Assembly (NCBI GenBank): GCA_963784445.1
Contig: CAWARO010000001.1
Coordinates: 833,133 to 897,132, forward strand
Direction of reading: 5' to 3'
From: an uncultured Acidimicrobiia bacterium
GTDB taxonomy: Bacteria > Acidobacteriota > Vicinamibacteria > Vicinamibacterales > UBA2999
DNA length: 64,000 nt
Position 1 is the stretch's first letter. Each line of letters begins with the position of its first letter. Shown here in pieces: positions 7,541 through 50,717 of this stretch. The position numbers and the translations under genes are program-made. The notes below the pieces were generated by a model. The model did not search any database. It saw nothing but the letters and a program-made list of their open reading frames with translations, and was not told the DNA's origin.

Positions 7541-7567
7541 ACAATTAAATCTATCACGTTCCCTACG

Positions 7568-7610
7568 GGTTCCAAGGGTTCCAGGGGTTCCAAAGGTTCC
7601 AGGGGTTTGG
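7568..7610. repeat. 9-bp tandem repeat GGTTCCARR x4 in the selD-atp spacer
   Basis: The sequence reads ggttccaag ggttccagg ggttccaaa ggttccagg ggtttgg. Extra GTTCC copies lie at 7558 and 7620. Confidence 0.9.
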
Positions 7611-7636: not shown

Positions 7637-8683
7637 TTAACCAAATTTAAGTCTTGAACCACCTGCGGAGGTTACGGATCCCACAAAACTGGCCGAAATT
7701 CCAGCGTTTTCCAGGTTGGCGAAGACCGCATCTGCTGCTTGGGCGCCGACCGACAAGAGTAAGCCTCCCGATGTTTGAGGATCAAAAATCACATCCCGGC
7801 GGGCTTCCGATACGTCCCGACTAAATTCAATCCCCGCCGCAAAGTGCTCCCGGTTTGTATTCATTCCCCCGGACTTGTTTTCCGCGGTCATCGCCAGCAC
7901 GCCTGGGATGATCGGCAACGCGCTCGCGTCGAACTCGATCGTCACGTGACTGGCCGCGGCCATCTCCGATGCGTGACCCGCCAGGCCGAAGCCGGTGATG
8001 TCGGTGCACGCGTGAACGCCATCGCCGTTCGCGATGGCTTCCGCCGCTGCCTTGTTCAACGTTCGCATCTGCGCCACCGCAAGATCGATCACGTCCTGTG
8101 ACGCTCGGCCGAACTTGATCGCGGTGCCGACGATGCCGGTGCCGAGAGCCTTGGTAAGAATCAAACGATCGCCCGGCTTCGCGCCGGCGTTGGTGAGGAT
8201 GCGTTTGGGATCGATCGCGCCGGTGACCGCGTAACCAAATTTGATCTCGCGATCCTGCACCGTGTGACCGCCAAGTAACGCCACGCCCGCCTCGCGCAAC
8301 TTGTCGAAGCCGCCGCGAAAGATCTGCGCAATGTCGTCGGTGTGCAGGCCATCCTGCGGGAACGCCGCAATCGCCAGCGCCGTGAGGGGCCGGCCGCCCA
8401 TGGCATACACGTCACTCAGTGCATTCGCCGCGGCGATCTGTCCGTAGATATACGGGTCGTCGACGATCGGCGTGAAGAAATCCACCGTCTGCACCAGCGC
8501 CGGTCCACCCTCCCACGCGTACACACCAGCATCGTCCGCAGTCCTGTAGTCAACGAGGATGCGTGGATCCGATTGAACTGGTATGCCGCTCAGGACCTGA
8601 GCGAGCTCGCCGGCTGCGAGTTTGCTCGCTCAACCGGCGCAGCTGACCATCTCGGTCAGCCGGCGCCTTTGCTGTGTCGTCAT
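7637..8683 (-). CDS. selD: Selenide, water dikinase (selenophosphate synthetase), selenocysteine-containing; in-frame UGA at 8630-8632
   Basis: The ORF track starts at 8524. Reading upstream in frame gives [60 protein letters not shown]... . The U-x-x-K spacing matches the SelD active-site Cys/Sec-Lys motif. The ATG at 8683 overlaps the parB stop (ATGA). Confidence 0.85.
8587..8629 (-). promoter_or_regulatory. Candidate bacterial SECIS for selD
   Basis: The mRNA downstream of the UGA contains CGCUCA-GGUCC-UGAGCG (plus-strand 8587-8603). The GGUC apical loop resembles the E. coli fdhF SECIS loop, recalled from memory. Confidence 0.45.
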
Positions 8684-9573
8684 TTGCGTTCCGTTAGATA
8701 TTCGTACAACCGCTGGAGCTCGTTCTCGTTCGTGAAGGCGATCGCGATCGTGCCTCCTTTTCCTTTGCGCTTGATCTCAACAGGAGTGCCAAGCGTGATG
8801 CGCAGCTGTTCTTCGGCCGCGCGCGTGTGGACGTCCTTCTTCGCTTTGAGCGGCGCCGTGGTGGTGGCGCCGCGCTTGTCGTCGATCTCTTTCTTGACGA
8901 GCGCTTCGGTCTCACGCACCGAGAGGCCGCGCGACACCACGTCGCGCGCGAGACGGCGTTGGTCGCTCTCGGAGGTCAACGCCACGATCGCGCGGGCGTG
9001 GCCCATCGAGAGCGCGCCCGAGGCCACGTTGCCGCGGACCTCTTCCGGCAGCTTGAGCAGGCGCAGGTAGTTCGCCACCGTCGCGCGATCCTTGCCAACT
9101 TGCGCGGCAATGTCGTCTTGCGTCAATTGAAAGTCGGAAACCAGGCGCTGATACGCGGCCGCCGCTTCCATCGGGTTGAGATCCTCGCGCTGGATGTTCT
9201 CGATCAGCGCCATCTCCAGCAGGCGCTTGCGATCGGTCGCGGCGATGTCCCTGACGACGATGGGGACTTTGGTGAGTTGGGCGCGCTGGGCAGCGCGCCA
9301 GCGGCGCTCGCCGGCGATGATCTGGTAGCGCTCACGCGCGGAGAGCGCGTTCTCGATCCTGCGCACGACGATCGGCTGAATCACGCCGTTGGCCTTGATC
9401 GATCGCGCGAGATCGTCGAGGCGCGCATCGTCCATGTGCGCGCGCGGCTGATACTGATTCGGCTCGAGCTGATCGATATCGACCTCGACGGACGAGCGTG
9501 GCGCGGTGAGCGCGTCTGATGCGTCGGGGATCAGCGCGCTGAGTCCTTTGCCAAGAGCTGGTCTTTTCTCCAT
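8680..9573 (-). CDS. parB: Chromosome partitioning protein ParB/Spo0J
   Basis: 297 aa. Contains LEPNQYQPR, GVIQPIVVR and IIAGERRWRAA. Confidence 0.93.
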   Translation of the reverse strand: MEKRPALGKGLSALIPDASDALTAPRSSVEVDIDQLEPNQYQPRAHMDDARLDDLARSIKANGVIQPIVVRRIENALSARERYQIIAGERRWRAAQRAQLTKVPIVVRDIAATDRKRLLEMALIENIQREDLNPMEAAAAYQRLVSDFQLTQDDIAAQVGKDRATVANYLRLLKLPEEVRGNVASGALSMGHARAIVALTSESDQRRLARDVVSRGLSVRETEALVKKEIDDKRGATTTAPLKAKKDVHTRAAEEQLRITLGTPVEIKRKGKGGTIAIAFTNENELQRLYEYLTERK

Positions 9574-46338: not shown

Positions 46339-47092
46339 TCACTTCTTCGGTATCGTCTTATCTAAATAGGCGCGAATCGTGTCGTAGGTGTGCGGCTGCA
46401 TCCAGGCATCGACGACGCGCGCGTTGAGATCGGCGAGCTGCTTCGTGCGTTGGAGGATCGGCGTGAAAAATGCCTCCTTCGTCAGCGCGAACGCGCCGGC
46501 AGGAATCGAGGCCAGCCTCTGCGCGACCTCGGTGGCACGGTCGAGGAGCATTCCGGCCGGGCACTTCTCGTCGATGAGCCCCATCGCCTTCGCCTCGTCG
46601 ATTTGCACGGTTCGTCCCGTGAACACGAGATCGCGAAGCGGGCCGTCGGCGAGACGCGCCGACATGATCTGGAGCGGCAAGGCCGGGAACGGCACACCGA
46701 CCGCGAGTTCAGGAATGCCTATGCGCCCGTTGCCCTCAACCATGATCCGATGATCGCAGGCGGCGGCCAGGATGCAGCCGCCGGCAATGGCGTGACCGTT
46801 GATCGCCGCCACCATGTGGTTTCGGGAAGGTCAACGCCGCGTGAAGAAAGGCGTCGAGGACCGGAAGAAAACGGCGCCCATATTCAGGTCCGTCATTCAC
46901 GACCCGATACAGATCGACGCCGGCGGAAAAAGCCGAACCTGAGCCGGTGACAATCACGGCCTTGATTGGCGCAGCGGCTGCGTCCGCTATTTCTCGCGTG
47001 AACGCCTCACCCAACTCGACGTCCATCGCGCTCACCTTGCCATGCGCGAGTTTCAGGACGCGGATGCCGTCGGTGTCTTTGCGCTCGATCAT
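46339..47092 (-). pseudogene. Enoyl-CoA hydratase/isomerase family, single frameshift near 46816-46820
   Basis: The N-terminal half (MIERKDTDGIRVLKLAHG...TFPKP) and the C-terminal half (MVAAINGHAIAGGC...) lie in different frames. Removing one base from ccgaaaccaCatggtg restores FPKPMVAAINGHAIAGG. Confidence 0.75.
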
Positions 47093-50046: not shown

Positions 50047-50074
50047 TGTAAAGGTGCCAGACCCTTTTACAATT
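50047..50074. terminator. Hairpin TGTAAAGG-tgccagac-CCTTTTACA (copy 2)
   Basis: Same sequence as copy 1 with one extra T. Overlaps the stop codon of the convergent selenoprotein gene. Confidence 0.45.
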
Positions 50075-50717
50075 CAGGCAGCTCCAATACAGCTCTCACG
50101 TATTCCTGCTCCGGCAAGCCGCCCATGATCTCAATCGTCTCGTTGACGACCGTCTTCGGCACGCCGGTCACTCGGTACTTCCGGCTGAGATCCATGAATT
50201 CGGTGGCTTCAATCGCGTCGGCGGTGATGTTCGGGTTGGCCGCAGCCATCTTGTGTGCGAGGACGACCGCCCTCGGGCAGTGCGGTCAAGTTGGCGTGGA
50301 AAACACCTGGATGTGGGTGGGTTTGTTGACCGCCTGAATCCACTTCATCGTCTCGGGCTCGAGCTCGATCTTGCCCGTGCCGGCCGTGATGATGGCTTCG
50401 ACCAGGCCGACGAACTCGTATCCGGTCGGCGCGCCGAACATACGCATGCGCGTATCGACGTCGTCGCTCAGGATCACGATGGCCGGCGCCTTGTCGATCT
50501 TGTACTTCGCCTTGTCTTCCGTATCGAGGATGAAGTTCTTGTCGACAACGGTGATCTTGTTGTTCAGCGCGGCCAGCTCACCGAGGATTTGTTTGGTGAT
50601 GGTACCGGTTTCAGAGCCGCCAAGGGCTTGCGTGAACAGAACGACCTGGACTGGATTGGTGATGACAGAAAGGTGCTGCTTGAGTGTTGCTTCGTCTTGC
50701 GGAGAAAGAAGGGCCAT
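50067..50717 (-). CDS. Two-unit thioredoxin-fold protein disulfide oxidoreductase (PDO / AhpF-N-terminal-like), selenocysteine-containing; UGA at 50286-50288
   Basis: ORFs 50286-50717 and 50067-50249 are in the same frame, separated by one TGA. The joined protein reads ...THIQVFSTPT-U-PHCPRAVVLAHKMAAANPNITADAIEATEFMDLSRKYRVTGVPKTVVN... . This parallels the archaeal PDO motif VFVTPTCPYCPLAVRMAHKFAIEN, recalled from memory. Confidence 0.85.
50258..50275 (-). promoter_or_regulatory. Candidate bacterial SECIS for the UPHC oxidoreductase
   Basis: The mRNA reads CGAGGG-CGGUCG-UCCUCG starting 10 nt after the UGA. The apical loop contains GGUC. Confidence 0.4.

Follow-up and report, generated by a model that had tools for sequence, protein, structure and literature searches.

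SelD and FdhA have been described as the most widespread bacterial selenoproteins (PMC1794560), a statement repeated later (PMC5029168) and again in a 2026 review (PMC13188914), and among bacterial selenoprotein families SelD ranks second in breadth of distribution (PMC1794560, PMC5029168, PMC13188914). In 2006, Zhang et al. reported 38 SelD sequences with selenocysteine (Sec) and already listed selenoproteins in Acidobacteria (PMC1794560). In the bacterial SECIS consensus, an apical loop of 3–9 nt is carried by an upper stem of 4–16 bp, a G occurs in the first two loop positions and is usually followed by G or U, the distance from the UGA to the apical loop is 16–37 nt, and the minimum free energy is no higher than -7.5 kcal/mol (PMC13188914). 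Both Sec-SelD and SECIS-dependent decoding are long established, and the selD gene described here is a correct but ordinary case of them. As in the known Sec-SelD genes, its UGA is followed by a hairpin within the coding region. Unlike those genes, it comes from an uncultured member of the Vicinamibacterales (Acidobacteriota) whose close public entries are all truncated calls, and 32 nt, including an additional conserved hairpin of 15 nt, separate its putative SECIS apex from the UGA.

The gene was found on the minus strand of the window, by which we mean the whole 64-kb stretch of DNA that was analysed. Positions 1–26000 of the window constitute a chromosomal origin region (atp operon, selD, parB, parA, rsmG, mnmE, yidC, dnaA), and the adjacency of parB and selD is found again in several relatives, for example at the loci L003, L015, L023, L027 and L046. 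The features of the selD locus are as follows:

7637 to 8683, minus strand: full-length selD coding sequence of 348 codons, including one UGA (putative Sec) codon, with the stop TAA at 7639-7637; from translation, TIGR00476 and structure alignments
8681 to 8683, minus strand: selD start codon ATG, sharing ATGA with the parB stop TGA at 8682-8680
8643 to 8659, minus strand: upstream hairpin U1, CUGAC-CGAGAUG-GUCAG, inside selD at -27 to -11 from the UGA
8630 to 8632, minus strand: in-frame UGA, putative Sec codon 18, equivalent to Cys17 of E. coli SelD; from alignment, with TGA in the window and 78 related loci
8606 to 8620, minus strand: hairpin H2, CUCGC-NGCNG-GCGAG, a conserved 15-nt hairpin between the UGA and H3; from RNAalifold
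8587 to 8603, minus strand: hairpin H3, CGCUCA-GGUCC-UGAGCG, with the loop at 8597-8593, the candidate SECIS apex; from the RNAalifold consensus and covariation
8598 to 8632, minus strand: alternative fold B, in which UGAGCGAGC pairs with GCUCGCUCA, the UGA lying inside the stem; it excludes H3
7637 to 8524, minus strand: shortened open reading frame reported by gene callers, with a GTG start and 295 codons for amino acids, without the Sec/Lys loop

The first-pass annotation had stated that the list of open reading frames begins SelD at 8524, without the catalytic N-terminus, that reading upstream leads through an in-frame UGA at 8630-8632, and that an ATG at 8683 overlaps the parB stop. All of this was borne out: the mechanical open reading frame extends from 8524 to 7637 with a GTG start and 295 residues, translation of 8683-7637 contains the TGA at 8632-8630 as its sole internal stop, and the parB frame (9573-8680) terminates in a TGA that overlaps the selD ATG by 4 nt. 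The N-terminal sequence Met-Thr-x-Gln-Gln-Arg-Arg-Arg-Leu, which begins 17 codons before the UGA, is kept by the closest relatives, while on the 5' side of the ATG the sequences of relatives diverge and stops are present. At the other end of the gene, 96 nt separate the selD stop from the gene for ATP synthase subunit B', which comes next; a tandem repeat with a 9-nt unit (TTGGAACCC, minus strand; 4.6 copies with 84% matches) lies in this spacer at window positions 7567-7607.

For protein searches, the UGA was replaced by Cys in the query. The extended protein (347-348 residues) scored 363 bits on TIGR00476 (cut-off 125) and matched profile positions 1-310 of 311; the 295-residue form scored 314 bits and matched positions 51-310, with positions 1-50 missing, so the N-terminal coverage that had been proposed for checking against this model is restored by the extension. 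On the equivalog PRK00943 (NF002098, cut-off 299), the extended protein passes with 311.5 bits and the 295-residue form fails with 272.6 bits. Weaker matches of the extended protein to ThiL, HypE and PurM are as expected for the superfamily, and precomputed Pfam assignments for an identical 295-residue public protein consist of the AIR-synthase-related domains PF00586 (N-terminal) and PF02769 (C-terminal). The best match among solved structures was E. coli SelD (3u0o; E = 1.6e-66, residues 6-344). In the alignment of the query (SCAG-U-ASK) with E. coli SelD (GAG-C-GCK) and Aquifex SelD (SSG-C-AAK), residue 18, encoded by the UGA, pairs with Cys, and Lys pairs with Lys. Since the UGA pairs with the Cys of the E. 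coli enzyme, it stands at the position of the catalytic Cys, with the Lys three residues on; the two E. coli residues are Cys17 and Lys20. The earlier suggestion that U-x-x-K reproduces the spacing found in SelD proteins thus holds for both residues. The motifs DDAGVY, TVDFF, NALSDVYAMGG and TDITGFGL on the 3' side of the UGA are also conserved in the structure alignment.

With the Aquifex aeolicus enzyme (PDB 2yye/2zod; TIGR00476 / PRK00943), the protein shares its family, full-length HMM coverage and the Sec/Cys-x-x-Lys N-terminal loop. The catalytic loop and the metal- and ATP-binding motifs are likewise conserved with respect to E. coli SelD, which, however, has Cys (UGC) where the present gene has UGA, and for that reason carries no SECIS. 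On sequence grounds, the gene very probably encodes selenophosphate synthetase (selenide, water dikinase; SelD) in its full length, with a catalytic residue 18 that would be Sec, specified by the UGA at 8632-8630.

Conservation of the UGA was followed in relatives by a scan with one genome per species, which gave 80 selD loci, at 59-89% identity, nearly all of them from metagenome-assembled genomes of Acidobacteriota or Vicinamibacterales. An in-frame stop is present at the UGA codon in 79 of the 80 loci, that is, in every locus with the N-terminus included. Where the codon itself was read, in the window and 78 related loci, it is always TGA and never TAA, TAG or a sense codon; L005 also has an in-frame stop at this site, its codon not being among the 78 read. 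The peptide flanking the UGA is almost invariant in the 79 relatives. None of these 79, all with the N-terminus, has a Cys codon at the UGA position, and none starts at an internal Met or Val with the catalytic motif elsewhere. The first-pass annotation had named orthologues that begin at the equivalent of 8524 and carry the Cys motif elsewhere as evidence that would overturn its reading; instead, all 79 relatives keep the stop and its flanks. In the ten codons on the 5' side of the UGA, the protein is conserved and third positions vary (entropy 1.95 for an Arg and 1.75 for an Ala codon), the Arg at -10 being encoded by six different codons and the Ala at -2 by four. Such conservation of amino acids combined with variation of third positions indicates that this region is translated in the selD frame.

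The public record of the same proteins looks quite different. The best 120 matches in a large protein collection, which include an entry 100% identical to the 295-residue frame, are 282-335 residues long, with a query coverage of no more than 92%, so the public SelD calls of this clade are uniformly truncated. Such a loss can be attributed to the in-frame UGA, which leads gene callers to drop the catalytic start of the protein.

Downstream of the UGA, the pattern of conservation changes. Between the codon that precedes the UGA and about +45, hardly any synonymous variation is seen, whereas synonymous sites are free outside this stretch. That preceding codon is GGU in 78 of 79 sequences, in spite of the GC bias, and comparable figures apply to CTC (79/79), GAG (79/79) and a second CTC (77/79); the frozen stretch also includes AAA (71/79) and GCT (67/78), which are unexpected choices in a genome with 63% GC. 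The exceptions are three third positions, all in predicted loops. RNAalifold run on the relatives predicted two tandem hairpins, H2 and H3, in a structure that is 95.2% paired, as against 23-39% in slid controls, and its covariation score was exceeded by none of 500 shuffles.

The second of these hairpins, H3, occupies +27 to +43 after the UGA, its loop following the UGA by 32 nt (alignment columns 34-65), and 97.4% of its cells in the alignment are paired. Its loop reads N-G-U-N-N across 79 sequences, the G and the U being invariant. One of its pairs, 63-73, is U-A in 64-65 sequences; 12 others have C-G and 1 has U-G. The switch to C-G results from a synonymous GCU to GCC substitution on one arm and a Ser to Gly replacement (AGC to GGC) on the other, and the GCC codon is seen only together with GGC opposite. 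A G-C to G-U change in H3 is found in 12 sequences. A neighbour-joining tree of the protein outside this region requires about 5-6 parsimony changes for the switch to C-G, which therefore represents more than one inherited event. H3 also falls within the bacterial SECIS consensus in all four respects, having a 5-nt loop (GGUCC) with G-U at loop positions 2-3, a 6-bp stem, a spacing of 32 nt, close to the upper limit of the accepted values, and an energy of -9.1 kcal/mol when folded alone. Taken together, the conservation and the covariation make it probable that H3 is the SelB-binding SECIS apex. No SECIS family of Rfam was found in the window at the gathering threshold, or in 8540-8700 and 50200-50330 at E-values up to 10, where the matches were chance ones only. 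The bacterial SECIS models of Rfam are lineage-specific, so a missing match is no mark against function.

The first-pass annotation had pointed to the hairpin CGCUCA-GGUCC-UGAGCG downstream of the UGA, to the similarity of its loop to the fdhF SECIS apex and to a GGUC shared with the hairpin after a second UGA in the window. The hairpin is indeed present at 8603-8587, covaries and fits the consensus; the E. coli fdhF element, taken from the K-12 record, reads GCA-GGUC-UGC after its UGA; and the sequence that follows the second UGA, at 50288-50286, is CGAGGGC-GGUC-GUCCUCG. In both fdhF (GCA-GGUC-UGC) and selD (UCA-GGUCC-UGA), the apical hairpin is closed by A-U and has the loop GGUC(C), and in both the UGA is able to pair within a lower helix. 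The two elements differ in the distance from the UGA to the start of the loop (18 nt in fdhF, 32 nt in selD), in the upper stem, which has a bulged U in fdhF and none in H3, and in the lower helix, which is continuous in fdhF, whereas in selD a separate hairpin, H2, fills the gap. The G and U of the loop are located at +34/+35 in H3, at +19/+20 in the second gene and at +20/+21 in fdhF, so that the H3 loop is more distant from its UGA, by 14-15 nt, than the loops of the other two. The extra distance equals the 15-nt length of H2.

H2 itself spans +10 to +24 after the UGA, with its loop at +15. It is 99.7% paired and its stem is without variation: the third positions of the stem are frozen (CTC 79/79, GAG 79/79, GGC 73/74), and two third positions in the loop vary freely. 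The lack of covariation in H2 follows from the fact that its stem never varies. Compared with the SECIS consensus, it falls outside in three of the four respects, with a spacing of 14 nt (less than 16), an energy of -6.0 kcal/mol (above -7.5) and a loop, N-G-C-N-G, without G followed by G or U. As a conjecture, H2 may serve as a spacer that is looped out.

The alternative fold B is the minimum-free-energy structure of the single sequence (-19.6 kcal/mol) and is thermodynamically preferred for the isolated RNA. In the alignment it is 97.8% paired, but the sequences that break its pair 33-63 are precisely the 12 in which H3 is compensated. Selection has thus kept H3 where the two folds conflict, and fold B was rejected as the primary conserved SECIS on the same observation. 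Around window positions 8598-8635 the hexamer UGAGCG is present in two copies, of which one coincides with the Sec codon and the other belongs to the 3' arm of H3; the CGCUCA arm could accordingly pair with either copy, and would thereby mask the UGA or form the SECIS apex. On the other side of the UGA, the middle pair 6-18 of U1 changes from G-C to C-G in 15 of 77 sequences, in about four separate clades and with both changes synonymous; the U1 helix is 88% paired and often loses its outer pairs. Two further pairings were considered and rejected. The hairpin GCGAG-CAAA-CUCGC right after the UGA was not picked by RNAalifold and is broken by GCC and TCG variants, and the third-position members of a long-range CGCCGG/CCGGCG pairing, which came from a chance Rfam alignment, vary without compensation.

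The window contains another gene of the same kind:

50067 to 50717, minus strand: two-domain protein disulfide oxidoreductase, the putative second selenoprotein gene, with a UGA at 50286-50288 and a hairpin at 50258-50275; from TIGR02187

This gene, which open-reading-frame finding reports as two pieces, scored 233 bits on TIGR02187 (PDO_seleno_TRX, cut-off 185), a type of oxidoreductase listed as a known selenoprotein family (PMC1794560, PMC13188914). As a member of a family distinct from selD, it bears only on Sec decoding by the organism. Its UGA supplies the first residue of U-P-H-C, the second CxxC-type motif, where it replaces the first Cys, and is TGA in 80 of 80 metagenomic relatives. 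The hairpin (50275-50258) follows this UGA by 17 nt, almost the fdhF distance; it is frozen in relatives, with codons just upstream varying freely, and shows a compensatory G-C to C-G change in the two most divergent ones.

Genes for the decoding machinery were sought in the neighbourhood. No selA, selB, selC or selU was found in the 64-kb window or in the 10-kb flanks of the 80 related loci, and tblastn with E. coli SelA and SelB, as well as ARAGORN for tRNA-Sec, gave no match in the window and the 80 loci. A single tRNA is present in the window, tRNA-Ser(UGA), and it is distinct from selC. An NCBIfam scan of 30 window open reading frames returned no sel gene apart from selD, but an origin-region set of genes including atp genes, parAB, rsmG, mnmE, yidC, dnaA, pcrA, serS, galU and rlmD. 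Among 20 family-supported genes of the window, 5 end in TGA (8 in TAA and 7 in TAG), fewer than would be expected at 63% GC in a sample too small to interpret. Internal TGA is confined to two genes, selD and the disulfide oxidoreductase, and in both its position corresponds to that of a Cys with a redox or catalytic role. A survey of in-frame TGAs flanked on either side by apparent coding sequence likewise left just these two. Two independent genes in one window, each with a conserved UGA and a hairpin, make a working Sec system very likely and speak against a lack of the insertion machinery, which the first-pass annotation had named as its second ground for refutation; this lineage thus very probably decodes Sec by a machinery that we infer from its targets. 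Another internal stop, the TGA at 46833-46831, was rejected as a Sec codon, since it adjoins a frameshift near 46820-46835 that splits an enoyl-CoA hydratase (crotonase) gene at about 46339-47090 on the minus strand. One frame encodes the N-terminal half of that gene (MIERKDTDGIRVLKL...FPKP) and the next frame the remainder (VAAINGHAIAGG...); the split gene is either a pseudogene or an assembly error.

Could the TGA in selD simply be a genuine stop, the product being the 295-residue protein from the GTG at 8524 or the locus a pseudogene whose upstream frame is not read through? Both the mechanical listing of open reading frames and all public calls among the best 120 matches give the short form, and no Sec machinery is found in the window. 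Yet the short form has lost the Cys/Sec-x-x-Lys loop and remains below the PRK00943 cut-off. Protein-level conservation in 79 genomes extends over the 17 codons that precede the UGA as well as the 35 that separate it from the GTG, and the former vary synonymously. A genuine stop would hardly explain why the codon is always TGA, and a pseudogene would not be kept across a range of 59-89% identity, which together make termination at this codon extremely improbable. Hardly better founded is the idea that the UGA is read through by other means, be it a reassigned code (UGA for Trp or Gly), near-cognate decoding or Cys insertion. Read-through by Cys-tRNA(Sec) or near-cognate tRNAs does occur at Sec codons in other systems, and the Sec machinery in this lineage is inferred rather than seen. 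On the other hand, TGA still terminates 5 of the 20 well-supported genes and is internal only at the redox or catalytic Cys of two genes, and both UGAs are followed by conserved hairpins with the G-U loops typical of SelB sites. We regard non-Sec read-through as very improbable.

A third explanation accepts Sec insertion but assigns the SelB element to H2 or to fold B instead of H3. The position of H2 speaks for it, as it starts at +10 with the loop at +15, near the position found in fdhF, and so do its completely frozen third positions in the stem; for fold B, one can cite its minimum free energy and its high degree of pairing. However, H2 departs from three parts of the SECIS consensus and shows no covariation, and fold B loses the pair 33-63 in exactly those 12 genomes in which H3 is compensated. 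Since the UGA is part of the 5' arm of fold B, this arm presumably has to be unwound when the UGA is in the ribosomal A site. The GGUC loops of fdhF and of the second gene, moreover, are matched by the loop of H3. It therefore seems unlikely that either of them is the SelB element, and H3 is retained as the probable one.

With H3 as the SECIS apex, the following course of events can be envisaged. Translation would start from the ATG at 8683, probably coupled to parB termination. With the ribosome at the UGA, the 5' arm of fold B would be melted at that moment, which would free CGCUCA to form H3 (8603-8587). The fdhF-like N-G-U-N-N loop of H3 would then recruit SelB-GTP-Sec-tRNA(Sec), the binding of SelB to this loop being expected from established bacterial Sec decoding, and Sec would be delivered with the UGA in the A site, in place of termination, and presumably incorporated. 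The resulting Sec-x-x-Lys loop would serve as the selenium-binding catalytic loop, as it does in other SelD enzymes. A more elaborate arrangement, in which the H2 spacer, a CGCUCA arm switchable between fold B and H3, and U1 make up a composite UGA element that the ribosome converts from a masked into a SelB-binding form, is a speculative and rather doubtful possibility. If such an element did exist, it could tune the translation of selD, which is inherently self-dependent, as SelD is needed to make its own Sec.

These observations have consequences for annotation. In Vicinamibacterales and their allies, a large soil and freshwater clade, the best 120 public SelD entries all lack the catalytic residue, and pipelines that use the shortened SelD calls would be misled about the enzyme as well as about selenium utilisation as a trait. 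As for physiology, SelD and a thioredoxin-fold oxidoreductase are the minimum set of proteins for which these organisms evidently pay for a Sec machinery. With a conserved putative spacer hairpin and a SECIS apex far from the UGA, selD may represent a small addition to the diversity of bacterial SECIS elements. Ten of the related loci (L003, L006, L008, L040, L042, L045, L056, L062, L066 and L068), whose SelD is 63-82% identical to that of the window and which have the same SECIS sequence, are on contigs labelled as Acidimicrobiia, Cyanobacteriota, Bifidobacteriaceae, Burkholderiaceae or Betaproteobacteria; these off-lineage labels suggest mislabelled bins and, less likely, horizontal transfer.
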